A stretch of DNA of 64,000 bases from a virus (Duplodnaviria > Caudoviricetes): IMG/VR virus record IMGVR_UViG_3300021387_000147, one strand, 5' to 3'. A model generated the notes under the pieces. That model was not told the DNA's origin and made no database searches. It was given only the letters and a program-made list of their open reading frames with translations. The first letter of the stretch is position 1, and each line of letters starts with the position of its first letter. Positions 22,617-56,066 of this stretch are shown one piece after another. A program made the position numbers and the translations under genes.

Positions 22617-23042
22617 TTAGTCTTCATTACATATTTTATAAATCTTATTGGCAAGAGCTACATTTGTCATATCTACTGGGCCTCTAAAACTTTCACCATT
22701 TATTTCCAACCATTGAATATATGGAGCTCCTGATAGTTTTTCATATAGATTACTTGTACTAAAAGTAATTTCAATTTTATTTTTATCAATATTACCTTTA
22801 ACTATAACACGCCAATCTACTGTTGCTTTTCCAGTAGCTTTTATATTAGTCATATTTAAAGTTTCAGCACAGAAATTCTTAATGTATTCTTTAATCTTTT
22901 TATCTGTTGAATTTGCTGGTCTATCGTAATCTATATCTGGTGCACCACACATACTTGATGAAGAACCATAACAACCTTCATTCAATTGGTGAATTACATA
23001 ACCATGTTCAATTAATTCTTTTTTAGCTTCTAGTAAATTCAT
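22617..23042 (-). CDS. putative internal head protein
   Basis: N-term MNLLEAKKELIEHGY...LNE, shared with 25649-26728 and 47533-47796. Confidence 0.5.
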   Translation of the reverse strand: MNLLEAKKELIEHGYVIHQLNEGCYGSSSSMCGAPDIDYDRPANSTDKKIKEYIKNFCAETLNMTNIKATGKATVDWRVIVKGNIDKNKIEITFSTSNLYEKLSGAPYIQWLEINGESFRGPVDMTNVALANKIYKICNED

Positions 23043-23392
23043 GCTTCTGTCTCCTTGAGATATTTATACGAATTAGCATATTCTTCTTCAAATATCCATT
23101 CCTTTTCTTTCTTCTTAAAGGCATTTCTTATTTTATGTTTTTCAGTCTCCTTAATTTCAATATACTCTCTCAAAGATAGGTGTCTATAGCAATACTTTAG
23201 ACACATTCTCATTTTAATTAAAAGAAGATGACACAAATGGTGTTCTTTAGGAGTTAATTCTACTTTGTTTGTTTTCTTATTACTTCCACCTTCTGAACGT
23301 GGTATAATATGATGATTTTCTATATAAGTTCCGTATAATACTCTTGTTTGTCCTCTTCTAATCAGTTTATCATAGATTGCCTGATAATTCAA
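23039..23392 (-). CDS. HNH endonuclease-like protein
   Basis: MNY..IY..LI, ENHHIIPRSEGGSN...N.VELTPKEHHLCH. Confidence 0.8.
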   Translation of the reverse strand: MNYQAIYDKLIRRGQTRVLYGTYIENHHIIPRSEGGSNKKTNKVELTPKEHHLCHLLLIKMRMCLKYCYRHLSLREYIEIKETEKHKIRNAFKKKEKEWIFEEEYANSYKYLKETEA

Positions 23393-23404: not shown

Positions 23405-23866
23405 TTATTTAAGTGATTTACGAGAATGCAAAGCATATTCGATTGCTTTTTGTGAAGGATTTGACATATATAATTGTCCATCTTCAAAAAGATATTTGGC
23501 AACAGCCTCATTTTTTACTCGATATATTTGTCTTGCGTTTCTTCTATCATAAACTCTAATGCCTGCAATTTTTGGATCTTGTTCATGCAGATATGCCATT
23601 AAAGTTTCTTTATTATAAAAATACCTTTTTTCGTCTCGTATAAACTGCTGATCAGATAACATTTTTTCAAATAATCTAATTCTATTGGATAATGTTAAAT
23701 GGTGTAAATTTAAACCAATAAAGCAATTGATATTCTTTTCAAAAGGACCGATACAATAGATGAAACAATCTCTATCGTATCCTTCCTTTTCATGTTTTGA
23801 ATTATAATGAAAAGTATACCAATATCCATTTACTACATAATTAGTTAATTCGAAATCTTCTTCCAT
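23405..23866 (-). CDS. DNA end protector protein (T4 gp2-like)
   Basis: G..YTF.Y.SKH...YDR, FIGLNLHHL...R. Confidence 0.7.
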   Translation of the reverse strand: MEEDFELTNYVVNGYWYTFHYNSKHEKEGYDRDCFIYCIGPFEKNINCFIGLNLHHLTLSNRIRLFEKMLSDQQFIRDEKRYFYNKETLMAYLHEQDPKIAGIRVYDRRNARQIYRVKNEAVAKYLFEDGQLYMSNPSQKAIEYALHSRKSLK

Positions 23867-23869
23867 ATA

Positions 23870-24943
23870 TTATCTATCATAGTCTGTATGTATCTTTAAA
23901 CCACCTTTTCCTATAGAAATTGTAGTTGTCTTTCCATGATTATGATGATGGTGATGACGTGGAGGTGGAGCAATACGTCTATCATGTGGTGGACGATAAT
24001 CTCTTGGATCCACATAATCATTTGTTGGATCATCATCTTGGAAACGAACATCTCTTCTATCTGGTCCATCATGATATACTGTTCTTGAAGGTATAACTTC
24101 TTGAGAAGTATATGTATGATTTAATCTATGCATGTATCTATCTGCTTGATGGAAATCACCAGCAACAGCCATATTTGATGCCATCAATAAAATAGCAATT
24201 GCACCTAAGATTGTAGTTTTACTTGTTGTAAACTTATCAGAATTCTTTACTTCTTTCTTAAATTGTTCAATATCACCTTGGGTAGCTTCTGCTTCTGTAG
24301 AGTCTTGTCTACGAATAGCAGTAGTAATACTGTCTTTAAATCTTGTCAATACTTCCTTTGCTCTTGATAGAATATCAGCTTCATTTAGACTTTCATCCAA
24401 GAACTGATTTTCTTCAGTCAAATAATCATAACAAGATTCTTTGAAAACTTTTTTCTTTTTCTTCTTCTTTTTCTTCTTTGGTAATTGATTTAACCAATAC
24501 TGTGGATAATGTGCTGCTTTAACACCTGTTGGAGCAGATTGACCCCACTTTACCATAGCAACACCTTTACAATCTCCACTATGAGGAATTCCTTGATCTA
24601 AACCACATGGAGCTCCTACTCCCATAGAGAAATCTTCATTGACTTCATCGTCTTGAATTGCTTTAACTTTCTTCATGTAAGATTTTAGCATTGGTATGCT
24701 AAATGCTATCTGAGTAAATCCACCTTTATTGTTCTGAATAATACGCCATGGATAAACGTTTCCTCTCCACCAGAATCCTTGGCCTCTGCGGAATTCAACT
24801 TCCCAAACAGTATCATCTTGCATGACAATTTCAAACTGTACTTTGACGTAATCTCCATCAGGATCTACTTCATAATAGTTCTTAACATGCTTGACTTTTT
24901 CAATTTCATCGACGATTTGGTCAACTATTTCTTCATAATTCAT
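23870..24943 (-). CDS. mosaic protein carrying a capsid N-arm-like segment
   Basis: Contains EDFSMGVGAPCGLDQGIPHSGDCKGV, a poly-Lys tract, a hydrophobic helix and a Pro/His-rich tail. Confidence 0.65.
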   Translation of the reverse strand: MNYEEIVDQIVDEIEKVKHVKNYYEVDPDGDYVKVQFEIVMQDDTVWEVEFRRGQGFWWRGNVYPWRIIQNNKGGFTQIAFSIPMLKSYMKKVKAIQDDEVNEDFSMGVGAPCGLDQGIPHSGDCKGVAMVKWGQSAPTGVKAAHYPQYWLNQLPKKKKKKKKKKVFKESCYDYLTEENQFLDESLNEADILSRAKEVLTRFKDSITTAIRRQDSTEAEATQGDIEQFKKEVKNSDKFTTSKTTILGAIAILLMASNMAVAGDFHQADRYMHRLNHTYTSQEVIPSRTVYHDGPDRRDVRFQDDDPTNDYVDPRDYRPPHDRRIAPPPRHHHHHNHGKTTTISIGKGGLKIHTDYDR

Positions 24944-24946
24944 TTG

Positions 24947-25423
24947 CTACCTCAAATGTATATTTAAATCATATATTTTATTTATTAAAGAAGCAATGTT
25001 TTTAAATTTATCAGAATGGACATATTCACCTTGAAACATTAATTTATTATAGGTTTCCATATCACCATCATCTTTATACCATAATGCTTGTTTAATATCT
25101 GATTGAGGTATCTCAGACATAATTTTATAATGTATCATTTCATGAACTAAAGTAGATACATATTCTTTTTTAGTTCTTTCATGATTATCAGCAATCTTTA
25201 TATGACAATTATCAATTCCTTTTGGAGTTATATCATAATAGAATTCACCATAATTTACATCATTATGTTCAAATTCAATAGGAATTTCTTTTAATTCATC
25301 ATTAAAATACAGATGATTGCATTCTGCGAACATCATCTGTAAATTTAAATCTTTAGGCTGAACTATTTGTGCAGCTCTTCTTTTATCATTTGCAAATTTC
25401 ATATTAATAAGAATCAAAATCAC
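24947..25423 (-). CDS. SprT-like zinc metalloprotease
   Basis: CN.LYF..EL, TLVHEMIH (HExxH), downstream H...FK. Confidence 0.75.
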   Translation of the reverse strand: MILILINMKFANDKRRAAQIVQPKDLNLQMMFAECNHLYFNDELKEIPIEFEHNDVNYGEFYYDITPKGIDNCHIKIADNHERTKKEYVSTLVHEMIHYKIMSEIPQSDIKQALWYKDDGDMETYNKLMFQGEYVHSDKFKNIASLINKIYDLNIHLR

Positions 25424-25648: not shown

Positions 25649-26728
25649 TTATTCATGAATGTATTGTTCAATAAATGCATACACATACTTTGTAGGAATA
25701 TCTGTAATTGGTCCATCACTTGTTTGAATACGCACTGCTTCTGGATGTAACTTAGCAGTCTTAACTAATTCTGCTTTTCCAAAAGGTGTTAACCAAGTAA
25801 TATATTCCCAAGGAGTTTCTTCTTTACGAGCATCTACACGAACATGATTTGTAAATTTATCTTTCTTTACAGCTTGATGCAATGCATCTCTTGCATTTTC
25901 ATCTGAGCCTTTATAAATGTTCGATACCTTAGAATTCTTTACTCCAGATTTATTTATAATTACGAAATCTGTAGGTTCACCATGGACGAATTTCTGTGCA
26001 TAACACTGTAGGCCTAAAATCTTAAATTGGACAGAACGGTTTTTATATTTTTCAAACCATATTTCTGCAGGCTTCTTAGGCTTTTCAGCTTTATGTTCTG
26101 CATCCTTTGCACCAAGTACTTTTACTTCTGCATATTCATCAGCACGAGTCCAAGCATGCTTCAATTCATCTACCTTATAATCAGGAATAGTTGCAGTTAT
26201 CTCATAAAAACCTTCTTCACCATCATGGTCATCACGCAATTTAAAACTAATTTCATTTCTTATAGATGAACCATTATAATCAGCTTTTAATTTATCAACC
26301 ATTGCTTGTGCTGCGTCATAAGAAGCAGATCTTAAATTATCAAACCAATCTGTTTCATACTTATAACCAGTAAAGTGATATGTTTGAATGGTAACTAACT
26401 TAACTGTCTTTGGAGCTTTCTTAGCTGGCTTAGGAGTTTGAGCTGGAGTAGAGGTTCCATCTGAAGGTCCCATCTTACCAACCATCTTCTGAATTTTCTT
26501 AATTGCAGAAGCGTTTTTCATTTTACTTGCTATATCATTTAAAATAGCAGAATACTTTGCCAAATTCTTTGCATTACCAGATTTACGTGCTGTATATGCA
26601 CCATTCATTGCTTTAGTCAAAGTGACTTTATCTTCTGGTGATAATTCATCAAAATCTGGAGTTGCCTTCCATTCATTAAGAAGATAACCATGTTCTTCTA
26701 ATTCGGTAATAGCTTCATTCAATTCCAT
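25649..26728 (-). CDS. putative internal head protein
   Basis: N-term MELNEAITELEEHGYLLNE; basic Ala/Lys/Pro linker. Confidence 0.55.
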   Translation of the reverse strand: MELNEAITELEEHGYLLNEWKATPDFDELSPEDKVTLTKAMNGAYTARKSGNAKNLAKYSAILNDIASKMKNASAIKKIQKMVGKMGPSDGTSTPAQTPKPAKKAPKTVKLVTIQTYHFTGYKYETDWFDNLRSASYDAAQAMVDKLKADYNGSSIRNEISFKLRDDHDGEEGFYEITATIPDYKVDELKHAWTRADEYAEVKVLGAKDAEHKAEKPKKPAEIWFEKYKNRSVQFKILGLQCYAQKFVHGEPTDFVIINKSGVKNSKVSNIYKGSDENARDALHQAVKKDKFTNHVRVDARKEETPWEYITWLTPFGKAELVKTAKLHPEAVRIQTSDGPITDIPTKYVYAFIEQYIHE

Positions 26729-26729
26729 A

Positions 26730-27269
26730 TTAACCCTTCTTTAATAACTTATTTAATTCATCATTAAGTTTACGAATAATATAATGCTTAGCTACCATAT
26801 CTGTATTAGAAAAATAATTTTGGTATCTTACATTATTTGCAACATTCTTTACCCAGGAAACTGTAGAAAGATAACCCATTTTAGGCTTTAACCAATCTCT
26901 TAATTTAAACATCAATAAATCAAGATTTGATATACATTCATTTTCTTCTTTTGTTTTTGGCTGTCTTATAAGTTTACCATTTATATCAATTAAACCAAGA
27001 CGATATGCCTTAGTCTTTGATGGTAAAGTCTGTAAACCTTTTAAGAAAATATAAACCAAAACATTATCAACATCTCTATAGTGTGTTGATAAATCAATCT
27101 TCTTATTTCTTTGTTGTAGAGAAAACAAAGTATTCTGTGCTTCAGTTATCATTCCATTTGCTTCAAACATTGCAGAAATAGTAGTTGCATTATTCACCAA
27201 ACGGCGAATTCCATGCAATCCACTATCATCATCCAATGATTGATCAAATCTTTTCCATAGTCTATTCAT
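26730..27269 (-). CDS. conserved T4-like phage protein
   Basis: KAYRLGLIDINGKLIR motif seen in T4-like hypothetical proteins; AATAAATA-N4-ATG start. Confidence 0.55.
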   Translation of the reverse strand: MNRLWKRFDQSLDDDSGLHGIRRLVNNATTISAMFEANGMITEAQNTLFSLQQRNKKIDLSTHYRDVDNVLVYIFLKGLQTLPSKTKAYRLGLIDINGKLIRQPKTKEENECISNLDLLMFKLRDWLKPKMGYLSTVSWVKNVANNVRYQNYFSNTDMVAKHYIIRKLNDELNKLLKKG

Positions 27270-43985: not shown

Positions 43986-45290
43986 TTACCATACTAGATC
44001 TGTAGACATGCCGTCTGAGAATAGACCATTGAACTTCAATAGACGATAGTAGTTTTCAGCTCCCAACATATTTGTTGCGAATCCATAACGAGACATAATA
44101 CCAACACGTGGTGAGAAGTCGTTTGGATCAACTGCCTGGTTGATAACACCAGTTACGTATGGGCAGAATACTACACCAGCATCAGACAATGAAGAACCCT
44201 TATATGCTAATAGAACTTCACCGTTATCAGTTGTACCATCTTCAGATACAGCGTACTGATCACAGTATACCTTGATTGAATTGTTTAGAGTACCGATTTC
44301 TGGAGTGACTAGAGAACCGTTAACGTCGTGCTGAATCTTGTTGAAGAATGGAGCAGCTGACTGTAGAACTGTAGCCATATCTGGAGAAACTACTGCGATG
44401 TTTGCAGCGCCTCTACGAGTAGCGGTACGAATATCGTTTGCAGCCTTTTGGATCTGTGTAACGATGTTTGAATATCTTTCCTGAGACCAACGTCCGATGA
44501 TACCATCGTAATTAGACTTATAATCTTCACCAGAAGCCTTATTGTAAATCTTTGGTGTACATAGAGACTTACAACGACCGATTGTTTCACGGTCCATTTC
44601 TGCGGTCATTTCTGCCTGAAGAACGTTAATCATTTCAGACATCATTTCAATACCCTGCATTGCCTTAATATCAGCTGCAGATTCTAGAGAGAATGATGCT
44701 GCTAGTTTACGTGTCTTAGCAACGATAGACTGTCTTGACAACATTAGGCCTAGTTCTGGCATCTTACGATCACCAGTCTTTGTGATTCCCCAACCTTCAC
44801 CGGTCTGAGTATCAACACCAGTACCTGCATCGTATGCTCCATCAGTGTTCTGTGTAGAACCTGTGAAACCAGAGAAACGAGGAACTGCCTTCCATGCTGC
44901 TTCAACTAATTCTGTTGGATCGTTTGTCTTATAAATGTAACGTAGTGCGAATGCCAAACCAACTGGACCATTCAATGGCTGAACACCAACCAATACGTTA
45001 GCGAATAATTGTGGGAATACTCTACGTACTAGTGCCATAGAAATAGGTGCAAAAACACCCTTTGCGTCACCACCGTGTGGAATACCCTGGTCTAGACCAA
45101 GAGGTGCACCAACACCCTGTGTGAAATCTTCTGTTAGAAGATTTTCAGAAAGGTTGCCCTTATTCTGGTTTTCTAGTAGACGAGCAGTGTTCATACGAAC
45201 ATTATAATCTTTAATTGAAGAAACAGACAAAGAACCTGGTGCCTTTGACCATTTATCCAATAATGATGCTTGTGCTTGACTAATTTTCAT
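43986..45290 (-). CDS. major capsid protein (T4 gp23-like); start re-called to 45290
   Basis: ARLLENQ, LVRRVFP.L.A...VGVQP..GP.GL.FALRY, AKTRKL, CPYV, DP..F.P.VG.MSRY; AGGAG SD before MKISQ. Confidence 0.95.
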   Translation of the reverse strand: MKISQAQASLLDKWSKAPGSLSVSSIKDYNVRMNTARLLENQNKGNLSENLLTEDFTQGVGAPLGLDQGIPHGGDAKGVFAPISMALVRRVFPQLFANVLVGVQPLNGPVGLAFALRYIYKTNDPTELVEAAWKAVPRFSGFTGSTQNTDGAYDAGTGVDTQTGEGWGITKTGDRKMPELGLMLSRQSIVAKTRKLAASFSLESAADIKAMQGIEMMSEMINVLQAEMTAEMDRETIGRCKSLCTPKIYNKASGEDYKSNYDGIIGRWSQERYSNIVTQIQKAANDIRTATRRGAANIAVVSPDMATVLQSAAPFFNKIQHDVNGSLVTPEIGTLNNSIKVYCDQYAVSEDGTTDNGEVLLAYKGSSLSDAGVVFCPYVTGVINQAVDPNDFSPRVGIMSRYGFATNMLGAENYYRLLKFNGLFSDGMSTDLVW

Positions 45291-45334
45291 TTGTTTATCT
45301 CCTATAAATAAATTATTTTTTAATTTACTTATTA

Positions 45335-45342
45335 TATTTATA
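45335..45342 (-). promoter_or_regulatory. T4-type late promoter for MCP
   Basis: TATAAATA about 45 nt upstream of the MCP start. Confidence 0.7.
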
Positions 45343-45368
45343 TAATTAACCAATTATTTTTTGCAAAA

Positions 45369-46538: not shown

Positions 46539-47132
46539 TTAGTTTTCAGTTGGGACTACTTCGAATGATGAATAAGAGAATGTAACTGAACGTTGAATCT
46601 TACCATCATCTTCCATACCCAAGTCTACTGAAGATACAGTCTTTGGCCATACTCTATATAGACGCCATTCAACTGGTAGTTTTCTCTTTAAAGTAGAATC
46701 GAACAAAACAATCTTCATAGTACCACAGTAATCTTTAGCATAATTACTCATAGCACCACCAGTCAAGTTTCCGTTTGCTACGTCAATATCATCACGGAAG
46801 CCATGGTTAAAGATTAAGTTCTGCCAATGGTGGAAAGCTGTAGATACCCATAGGTCTTGGAATTCATCGAAGTTGACAGTTACGTCACCTGCAACGTTTG
46901 CCTTACCTGGATAAATTAGCTTTGAACCCATATATTCAGTAGTCATATCAGTAAATTCCTTCTGAGGAATTGTGACAGTCTTTGCTCTGAACATAAATGG
47001 CTGTTGACCAACCATATCTTGTAATTGCTGTGATTCGAATTCGATTACAACCTGGAATAGATACTTCTTTGCTAAGTCAGGAAGGTTAGCAATTTCGGTT
47101 GTAAATACGCTCATATTATTTTCTACTGGCAT
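46539..47132 (-). CDS. tail tube protein (T4 gp19-like)
   Basis: LAK.YLF.V, F..K.V.IP, Y.G.....PG, WP..VS..DL, VTF.Y. Confidence 0.85.
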   Translation of the reverse strand: MPVENNMSVFTTEIANLPDLAKKYLFQVVIEFESQQLQDMVGQQPFMFRAKTVTIPQKEFTDMTTEYMGSKLIYPGKANVAGDVTVNFDEFQDLWVSTAFHHWQNLIFNHGFRDDIDVANGNLTGGAMSNYAKDYCGTMKIVLFDSTLKRKLPVEWRLYRVWPKTVSSVDLGMEDDGKIQRSVTFSYSSFEVVPTEN

Positions 47133-47532: not shown

Positions 47533-47796
47533 TTAGTCAAGAAAAGAATGAGATTCCAAGAAATTATTTAGCAATTCTTCATTTGTTTCTGATAAGTATG
47601 CAATAATTTCCTTAGCAAAATCATCACCGTTAATTTCTCCAGCATCGATAGCGTTAATGACAGTTGTTGCCATGTCTAAAGATTCTGCATCGTCATCGAA
47701 ATCATCGATGCCTTCTAGAATAACATCGTAGCCAGCGTCATTTAAAACTTTCTTTGCTTCATCAATTTCTTGCATTGTTTCGCTGAAATTCTTCAT
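47533..47796 (-). CDS. small acidic putative prohead core/internal protein
   Basis: MKNFSE...IDEAKKVLNDAGY..ILE; located downstream of the portal, where T4 has gp67. Confidence 0.5.
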   Translation of the reverse strand: MKNFSETMQEIDEAKKVLNDAGYDVILEGIDDFDDDAESLDMATTVINAIDAGEINGDDFAKEIIAYLSETNEELLNNFLESHSFLD

Positions 47797-55517: not shown

Positions 55518-56066
55518 ATGGCAGGTGTGACAACTGAGATTAACAATTATAATAAGAACAAATGGATATGTAGATTTTCCAACATGGTAGACTTTACTGA
55601 CCTTGAATTAGATACTACTGTCCTTGATAACTATATTCGAACAGTCAATATTCCTGATTTGTCAGTAAATATGTTGACTTCAGAATTCCAACATGAAAGA
55701 CAATTGCATCCAGATCCACGTGGTGCTCGTGATTTACAGACCATCAATATGGAATTTAAGATGGATGAAGAAGGTAAAAACTTCTATTATTTCTGGTGTT
55801 GGCTAATGAGCATGAGAGCAGGTAAACCAATTGGAAAAAAGACAGCTCTTGGTGAAAAGCTGTTGAGAATGGACTGTATCGATGCTATAGAAGTTTGTCT
55901 ATTAAATAACGACAAAGTAATGGTTTCAAAGATGAAATTCTGGCACTGTATACCTACTAACTTGTCAGCATTGAGTCTAGAAACTGGTCAGGCACAAGAA
56001 GCTACATTCATAGTCACATTCGATTATGAAAACATGACGCTTCAACCTGTCACTTCTGAAGAATAA
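55518..56066 (+). CDS. tail tube terminator/completion protein (T4 gp3-like)
   Basis: VNIPDLS, F.MDE...N.Y...CWL, F..C.PT.LS.L, VTF.Y. Confidence 0.7.
   Translation: MAGVTTEINNYNKNKWICRFSNMVDFTDLELDTTVLDNYIRTVNIPDLSVNMLTSEFQHERQLHPDPRGARDLQTINMEFKMDEEGKNFYYFWCWLMSMRAGKPIGKKTALGEKLLRMDCIDAIEVCLLNNDKVMVSKMKFWHCIPTNLSALSLETGQAQEATFIVTFDYENMTLQPVTSEE

Follow-up and report, generated by a model that had tools for sequence, protein, structure and literature searches.

The 64,000-nucleotide stretch of viral DNA analyzed here (IMG/VR record IMGVR_UViG_3300021387_000147, Caudoviricetes; "the window" in the following) contains on its minus strand an open reading frame (ORF) of 357 amino acids at 23870-24943, named ORF357, in which a copy of the N-terminal segment of the phage's own major capsid protein (MCP) is embedded. 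The resemblance had been noticed in a preliminary description of this DNA; what was missed, however, is that a widespread gene family, present as a single copy and including gene 61.1 of phage T4, is built around this segment. Judged from its sequence, ORF357 appears to be a module-expanded member of this conserved family, the T4 representative of which is gene 61.1 (PHROG 1823/2086). Non-MCP proteins that carry a copy of the MCP N-terminal segment are called partners below. The evidence tips the balance slightly in favor of a model in which the partner is taken into the prohead and processed there by the prohead protease, with its copy acting as a mimic of the MCP N-terminus.

ORF357 contains VNEDFSMGVGAPCGLDQGIPHSGDCKGV, and the MCP contains LTEDFTQGVGAPLGLDQGIPHGGDAKGV. 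The two segments extend from V101 to V128 of ORF357 (24560-24643) and from L73 to V100 of the MCP, numbered from an upstream TTG (45054-45137). The coordinates given previously were right to within 1-3 nt, while the strand has to be corrected, as both ORFs are located on the minus strand. From the glutamate onward, 21 of 26 residues are identical (E=3e-12, pairwise BLASTP), exactly as described before, and beyond this core the alignment continues more weakly to about 60 residues. A six-frame motif scan of the window retrieved two copies only, those in ORF357 and in the MCP. The DNA identity of the shared segment is 64%, and 14 of the 21 codons for the same residue differ synonymously; for this pair the nonsynonymous divergence (dN) is 0.155 and the synonymous divergence (dS) is saturated. 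The earlier view that the conservation exists at the protein level and does not stem from a recent duplication was therefore correct. The Pfam domain Gp23 is absent from ORF357 and matches only the MCP in the window. Without this domain, an identity of ORF357 as a gp24-like vertex paralog was ruled out; in five related genomes, each with one full Gp23 gene, no such paralog was detected either.

The MCP is encoded at 43986-45290 (minus strand; Pfam Gp23, 4.6e-75; PHROG major head protein). In T4, the protease gp21 cuts off residues 1-65 of the capsid protein gp23, and residues 66-91 constitute the N-fist, which is disordered within the prohead, where it probably contacts the scaffolding core, and which reaches the outer surface on expansion, touches four subunits and helps to form the Soc site (PMC7136217; PMC9546572; PMC9958956). 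In the MCP of the window, the tripeptide L-T-E (45129-45137, minus strand), the predicted maturation cleavage site, is found exactly 33 residues before a conserved VRR, and the same tripeptide and the same spacing, without gaps, are present in T4 gp23 (L-T-E65/A66). In addition, the Pfam Gp23 model begins immediately after the shared motif. The MCP is therefore predicted to begin, once mature, with the shared segment, as had been proposed; the N-fist equivalent comprises the 25 residues from D76 to V100 in ORF numbering (45054-45128, minus strand). The motif is invariant among MCPs of 76-97% identity and recognizable down to 56% identity, and it is always preceded by L/I-x-E.

In ORF357, the tripeptide that aligns with L-T-E of the MCP is V101-N102-E103 (24635-24643, minus strand), a predicted prohead-protease site of the type hydrophobic-x-E. 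The N-fist copy proper extends from D104 to V128 (24560-24634, minus strand), and further downstream a run of ten lysines, K156-K165 (24449-24478, minus strand), follows directly after YWLNQLP. A frameshift artefact at this run was ruled out by its mixed AAG/AAA codons and by the occurrence of the tract throughout the family. Upstream of the site, residues 1-98 (24650-24943, minus strand) form an accessory module, which is folded in the AlphaFold2 model with a predicted local distance difference test score (pLDDT) of 80-90, whereas disorder is predicted for the motif region of the monomer (pLDDT 30-40). The N-terminal domain also occurs in proteins without the motif, and P0029-P0047 share only this part with ORF357. 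The preliminary description had suggested that two cysteines could constrain the peptide. Both are present in ORF357, but they are not conserved across the family: the first position is occupied by Cys, Leu, Thr, Val, Ala, or Met, the second by Cys, Gly, Ala, or Ser, and one entire lineage has neither. The Cys pair is thus lineage-specific, and a general constraint of the peptide by a disulfide or a metal was ruled out.

The window phage is a divergent T4-like jumbo phage from the rumen with a gp20-type portal, a T4-type scaffold, a gp23-type MCP, and a GC content of about 31%. Its best cultured MCP relatives are only 33% identical, and closely related phages are represented by uncultured IMG/VR contigs, which include several complete genomes of 243-424 kb. 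It had been suggested that the pair should be looked for in related genomes, and the second copy is indeed present there, as a single one: six near-complete relatives (243-424 kb, including G007) and an 87-kb fragment (G011) each contained exactly two matches, namely the MCP and one small ORF of 142-222 amino acids. In three relatives (G002, G003, and G005) this partner is the positional ortholog of ORF357, directly after an SprT-like gene, and the order is a 179-amino acid gene, a 77-amino acid gene, the SprT-like gene and the partner, flanked by portal, baseplate and other structural genes.

A search of 1.84 billion representative proteins with a 38-residue motif profile retrieved 91 clusters with the motif, about 75-80 of which are non-MCP. 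The common layout of the partners is a variable N-terminal part, which often is a leader of the form M-x-L-x-E-A-x3-L-x3-G-Y, followed by hydrophobic-x-E, D-F, the motif, a spacer (median 24 residues) and a Lys/Arg run. The following counts refer to the 85 entries that were not classified as MCP by script, about six of which are N-terminal fragments of MCPs. The third residue before the predicted cut (P3) is L/V/I/M in 69 of 83, and the last one (P1) is E in 72 of 84; a polybasic tract follows the motif in 61 of the 85 entries, 39 of which end at most 15 residues past the tract. The smallest family members have 52-78 residues. The module with the N-fist copy is fused to at least 27 unrelated flanking sequences, and ORF357 represents one expanded version. 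The family-wide basic run suggests binding to DNA or to an acidic core. Pfam and PHROGs contain no family for the partner proteins of the rumen clade. For ORF357, neither a tblastn search against 50,697 phage records nor a scan of IMG/VR with its peptides yielded a match, fold searches with its model returned generic helical-bundle matches only, and the ESM Atlas gave no result.

A comparison at the codon level, which had also been proposed before, yielded a dN of 0.11-0.23 and a saturated dS between the MCP motif and the partner motif within each of seven genomes. The saturated silent sites rule out a recent duplication or gene conversion, and together with the low dN they show that the resemblance is maintained at the protein level, under purifying selection. 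Furthermore, the residues of the partner copy indicate that it follows its own MCP in states specific to the lineage. The MCP of G006 and G007 reads ...GATGLNQGIPHGGPGKGVL and the partner reads ...GPTGLNQGIP(H/L)GGPGKG(V/C)(I/L), so that Thr, Asn, Pro, Gly, and Leu/Ile states are common to both proteins and differ from the lineage of the window. The partner of these two genomes is identical to its own MCP at 23 of 27 positions, compared to 17 of 27 for the MCP of the other lineage. The dN within G006 (0.11) is lower than the MCP-MCP or partner-partner values between the lineages (0.20-0.27). Matched variants were also found in unlinked metagenome proteins: IPYGGDGKAV and GLTNGIP each occur in both partners and MCPs, and P0134 and P0136 are alike at 23 of 27 residues, including a change from D-F to V-P. 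In a tree of the motif, MCPs and partners are interleaved, and at least seven label changes are needed. Co-variation with the MCP over long times implies that copy and real N-fist have one binding partner in common, which could be the scaffold or the protease of the prohead, or else the expanded lattice.

T4 gene 61.1 (NC_000866, 18966-19130) encodes a protein of 54 amino acids that is annotated as hypothetical. The protein shares 17 of 37 residues with gp23 residues 57-93 (E=6e-9), and it consists of MKTFKEFIKE, the N-fist-like part DMVAGDSGG...GAVVNKGP, and EQIPKKKK. The T4 internal proteins (IPs) IPII and IPIII open with MKTYQEFIAE. This N-terminus of internal proteins is an experimentally defined capsid-targeting sequence (CTS), which directs them to the scaffolding core and is removed by gp21 (PMC3012670; Mullaney and Black, 1996, as cited in PMC9958956). 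The pattern of the first eight codons of 61.1 fits only 61.1, ipII and ipIII in the whole T4 genome, and a control with the reversed pattern gave zero matches. Homologs of gp61.1 are present in 1432 phage records and are usually named "hypothetical", while some are automatically labeled "major capsid protein" in GenBank, which means that annotation pipelines have picked up the similarity without an explanation.

The long forms of gp61.1, which have 135-166 amino acids in KVP40, RB43, CC2, Ac42, and KP27, are composed of a conserved N-domain, M/L/V-x-E, an N-fist-like segment close to that of their own gp23, and a basic C-terminus. They belong to PHROG 2086 and the short form belongs to PHROG 1823; T4 gp61.1 matches the last 47 positions of PHROG 2086. 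T4 gp61.2 was considered as the missing N-domain and ruled out by comparison. The window contains an ORF of 179 amino acids (26730-27269, minus strand) that is homologous to the N-domain of the long gp61.1 proteins (E=4.9e-8 with PHROG 2086 positions 6-88, E=2e-8 with RB43 gp61.1), and homologs of this ORF are located one to three genes upstream of the partner in the window, in G002, G003, and G005, and in the contigs L108 and L109. Therefore, the N-domain homology and the synteny indicate that the gp61.1 gene is split in two in the rumen clade, and that ORF357 corresponds to the tail half. The tail module, consisting of hydrophobic-x-E, the N-fist copy of the own MCP, and the basic tract, is present in ORF357 as in the gp61.1 family. 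ORF357 would thus be a family member by architecture and split synteny, not by a direct match to a hidden Markov model (HMM).

The sequence AATAAATA, which has one mismatch to the T4 late-promoter motif, is situated 35 nt before the start codon of ORF357 (24979-24986, minus strand), and the partner genes of G002, G003, G005, and G006 are preceded by the exact motif TATAAATA at a distance of 20-34 nt. In the window, 11 of the 22 occurrences of TATAAATA are located 1-70 nt upstream of an ORF of at least 100 amino acids on the same strand (0.9 expected), including those ahead of the MCP gene (45335-45342, minus strand) and of the portal gene. One gene for a T4 gp21-type protease (Peptidase_S77) was found in each of the five relatives tested, and no prohead protease gene was found within the window. 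Immediately downstream of ORF357 a gp2-like DNA end protector is encoded (23405-23866, minus strand), which is likewise found near the partner in L108 and L109.

We favor entry into the prohead because the cleavage site is conserved, the T4 homolog has a CTS, the partner genes of the rumen clade have a late promoter and a structural neighborhood, and a gp2-like gene is adjacent. According to this model, the protein would be made late and would enter the prohead, where a protease of the gp21 type would cut it after V-N-E103, just as the MCP after L-T-E. The product would start with the same residues as the mature MCP, and the N-fist copy would engage whatever the N-fist of the MCP engages, i.e., in T4 the scaffolding core or the protease within the prohead and neighboring subunits of the expanded lattice. 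The basic tract would then bind packaged DNA. Three uses of capsid mimicry had been considered in the preliminary description, namely docking into the shell lattice, co-processing by the prohead protease, and a decoy for host immunity. Among them co-processing is best supported, with hydrophobic-x-E being kept across about 80 clusters and the CTS of IPII and IPIII being present in the T4 counterpart. Docking of the N-fist copy into the capsid lattice appears plausible. A further possibility is more tentative. The copy might be a lattice-mimicry tag that is conserved across the T4 superfamily and occupies the contact sites of the MCP N-fist once it has been exposed by the protease; candidate sites are those that stay unpaired at the portal or the vertices. 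The basic tail might then anchor the packaged DNA, or one end of it, to the shell. If this were true, the phage head studied best would have a structural component, gp61.1, that has escaped notice, and proteins could be targeted to a capsid in a new way, by a copy of the N-terminus of the capsid protein itself.

Several observations weigh against entry into the prohead and maturation there. For cleavage, presence in the virion, and capsid or DNA binding of any member, the evidence is sequence-based and not direct. ORF357 begins with MNYEEIV and thus has neither an N-terminal leader nor a CTS resembling MKTYQEFIAE. The T4 N-fist ends on the outer capsid surface, which a free internal peptide would not obviously reach. 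Gene 61.1 is located between the helicase (41) and primase (61) genes, and it adjoins the primase gene in T4, KVP40, RB43, CC2, and Ac42, whereas the partner gene of the window and its relatives lies among structural genes and not between helicase and primase genes; the location with replication genes instead of head genes in the Straboviridae is a counterargument. No TATAAATA was found near T4 61.1, and its timing in T4 may be early or middle. Mature T4 gp61.1 would be slightly acidic overall, which weakens a universal role in DNA binding, and in cyanophage Syn1 a second N-fist copy was not detected. The HMM search with ORF357 yielded only a weak match to phrog_7001 and none to PHROG 2086/1823. 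The latter result is not decisive, because the N-fist sequence differs between the clades, and a tail that keeps pace with a divergent MCP would not be expected to match. Regarding the co-variation, same-genome pairs of MCP and partner stem from two lineages only, and the other matched variants are in unlinked metagenome proteins; searches of IMG/VR and JGI metagenomes with lineage-specific DNA patterns for pairs on the same contig gave nothing, partner-only contigs, or random hits. Finally, the approximately unbiased (AU) test was suggestive but did not significantly reject MCP monophyly (delta log likelihood 44, p-AU 0.079), a test that is underpowered with 27 columns.

The conserved cleavage consensus directly ahead of the copy would also be understandable if the role of the copy was confined to the protease. 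In that case, the copy would be an extended substrate or exosite mimic, and the protein would be a competing substrate, a timer, or a regulator without any later structural function. Co-variation with the MCP is expected if both proteins have to fit one protease, and the T4 protein Inh, annotated as a minor head protein, inhibits gp21 and is a precedent for regulation by a head protein. However, three ORFs of the window that are likewise predicted substrates (22617-23042, 25649-26728, and 47533-47796, all minus strand) carry the leader M-x-L-x-E-A-x3-L-x3-G-Y followed by hydrophobic-x-E within 10 residues, and what comes after the glutamate is unrelated to the N-fist in all three; the same is true for T4 IPII and IPIII. 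Therefore, the protease needs no N-fist on the P' side of the cut, and the copy is not simply a requirement of the protease. As the universal polybasic tail is also left unexplained, we regard an exclusively protease-directed role as rather unlikely. The notion of a decoy or shield, in which a host sensor of new capsid protein is titrated or blocked by a free copy of the N-terminal MCP segment, is reminiscent of the Lit protease, which is activated by the Gol peptide of gp23. The Gol region presumably lies just after the N-fist, so that the copy would stop short of it, which is a point against the idea. A mimic that tracks the phage's own MCP, hypervariable flanks, and the clustering of T4 61.1 with dmd and sp, genes of the host-interaction type, would be in agreement with a decoy or shield. 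Nevertheless, a decoy needs neither a conserved cleavage site nor a late promoter and structural-gene surroundings, as found in the rumen clade, nor a polybasic tail, and T4 gp61.1 has a CTS. We consider this part of the preliminary description improbable, and a decoy fits least among protease regulator, assembly cap, decoy, and relic.

Co-variation with the MCP could also be the signature of a cytoplasmic assembly factor, in which the N-fist peptide caps binding surfaces on unassembled or aberrant MCP and prevents polyheads or premature expansion without being packaged. This would be compatible with the T4 N-fist, which contacts four subunits and stabilizes the expanded lattice only (PMC9958956), but a cytoplasmic protein needs neither the conserved protease site nor the T4 CTS, and no phenotype is known; this explanation seems quite improbable to us. 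The fading of the alignment between ORF357 and the MCP after about 30 residues and the presence of weak Gp23-like fragments in other ORFs of G002 would be expected for a functionless relic of a partial MCP gene duplication that is kept alike by occasional gene conversion. However, none of the complete relatives has a disrupted ORF, dS is saturated and dN/dS remains far below 1, and the family, with 1432 phage records, includes members in the rumen clade as well as in T4, KVP40, and Acinetobacter phages. The data on selection and distribution effectively refute a relic, to which we attach next to no probability.

Several known systems invite comparison. Like ORF357, T4 gp61.1 and its Straboviridae homologs possess hydrophobic-x-E, an N-fist copy of their own MCP, and a Lys/Arg tract, which is preceded by Ile-Pro in T4 gp61.1 and by Leu-Pro in ORF357. 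In contrast to gp61.1, ORF357 has additional N- and C-terminal modules, the N-fist sequence of another clade, a split gene, and a locus among structural genes. Functionally, the partner may be most similar to the T4 internal proteins with a CTS and, more loosely, to DarA and Hdf of phage P1. IPI, IPII, and IPIII combine diverse cargo with a short targeting element that gp21 removes at L/I-x-E, and they are encoded at a hypervariable locus (PMC3012670). While T4 gp61.1 has a CTS of the IP type, the rumen partners instead have a recurring leader of about 20 residues that ends with hydrophobic-x-E. The T4 internal proteins lack a copy of a capsid protein, whereas the conserved element of the partners is the mature N-terminus of the MCP, with which it co-evolves. 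DarA and Hdf are head proteins that lose their N-terminus to the prohead protease and are located on the inner capsid surface at penton-hexon junctions, touching DNA (PMC12810830). Unlike the partner, they are large folded proteins, and they have neither a sequence relation to it nor an MCP-derived segment. The adenovirus proteins pVII and pre-Mu are basic DNA-associated peptides that are matured by the capsid protease, but they belong to an unrelated virus with an unrelated protease and do not mimic the capsid protein.

In the literature searched, a second N-fist copy was not discussed, and gp61.1 appeared in two papers only, both times as an annotation label. What is new is the nature of the conserved element, a copy of the mature capsid N-terminus that co-evolves with the capsid protein, and the finding that T4 gp61.1 carries both the N-fist copy and the targeting sequence of internal proteins. 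This offers a concrete and testable hypothesis for T4 gene 61.1, which is conserved in more than 1400 sequenced T4-like phages and has no assigned function. The duplication of a capsid-protein segment onto another protein, kept in step over a very long divergence, indicates that both proteins bind the same target. If the copy was a docking or targeting element, it would represent a new principle for the loading of cargo into HK97-fold shells, would be of use for phage engineering beside the T4 CTS, and would bear on the DNA organization of jumbo phages.

The leader M-x-L-x-E-A-x3-L-x3-G-Y itself deserves attention. Three ORFs with this leader were found in the window, compared to 0.16 predicted by shuffling, and the same leader heads many partner proteins as well as P0031, P0033, and P0049. 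One of the leader-bearing ORFs occupies the gp67/68 position of the head module, adjoining the portal gene behind a late promoter. By its pattern and distribution, the leader is a candidate for a clade-specific capsid-targeting propeptide.

ORF357, as the locally expanded family member and positional ortholog of partners of 142-195 amino acids in related jumbo phages, has additional features in its variable C-terminal part, i.e., a hydrophobic helix resembling a signal or transmembrane helix (residues 243-262, 24158-24217, minus strand) and a tail rich in Asp, Arg, Pro, and His (23933-24058, minus strand). In the window, a His/Pro-rich segment with His runs, PPPP, and C-P-N-C is attached C-terminally to ORF357, and it constitutes a separate gene just upstream of the partner in L108 (1144-1542) and L109 (7320-7757). 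The ORF357 variants P0002, P0003, and P0012 have gained or lost whole modules exactly at V-N-E, V-D-E, or L-T-E sites, e.g., an insert of 150 amino acids in P0002 and an added leader in P0012, and variants of 584-614 amino acids have a second module consisting of a helix and a signal-like part. This pattern looks like polyprotein-like shuffling at presumed cleavage sites.

The gene immediately upstream of ORF357 encodes an SprT-like Zn-metalloprotease with the motif HEMIH (24947-25423, minus strand), and this adjacency is kept in G002, G003, and G005. The late-promoter motif of ORF357 is embedded in the 3' end of this gene. HNH endonuclease and gp2-like genes accompany the partner gene in three separate lineages (window, 23039-23392 and 23405-23866; L108, 120-901; L109, 6354-7203). 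The MCP ORF as listed (43986-45353) opens at a TTG that is located upstream of its own TATAAATA, and the true start is probably the ATG at 45290 (MKISQ...), downstream of the late promoter.

The window also contains two paralogs of a gp19-like tail-tube gene (46539-47132 and 55518-56066). In related jumbo genomes, Pfam Gp23 weakly matches other small ORFs over inner portions of the capsid fold (20-28 bits; G002, 148199-148426, 149401-149739, and 232984-233103; G007, 184074-184388), and these ORFs may be further capsid-derived fragments. In the T4 record (NC_000866, 123065-123450), alt.-1 and alt.-2 are noted to derive from an old duplication of the initial part of gene alt, whose product is likewise packaged into the head; T4 thus offers a second example of a head-protein gene with a duplicated 5' segment.

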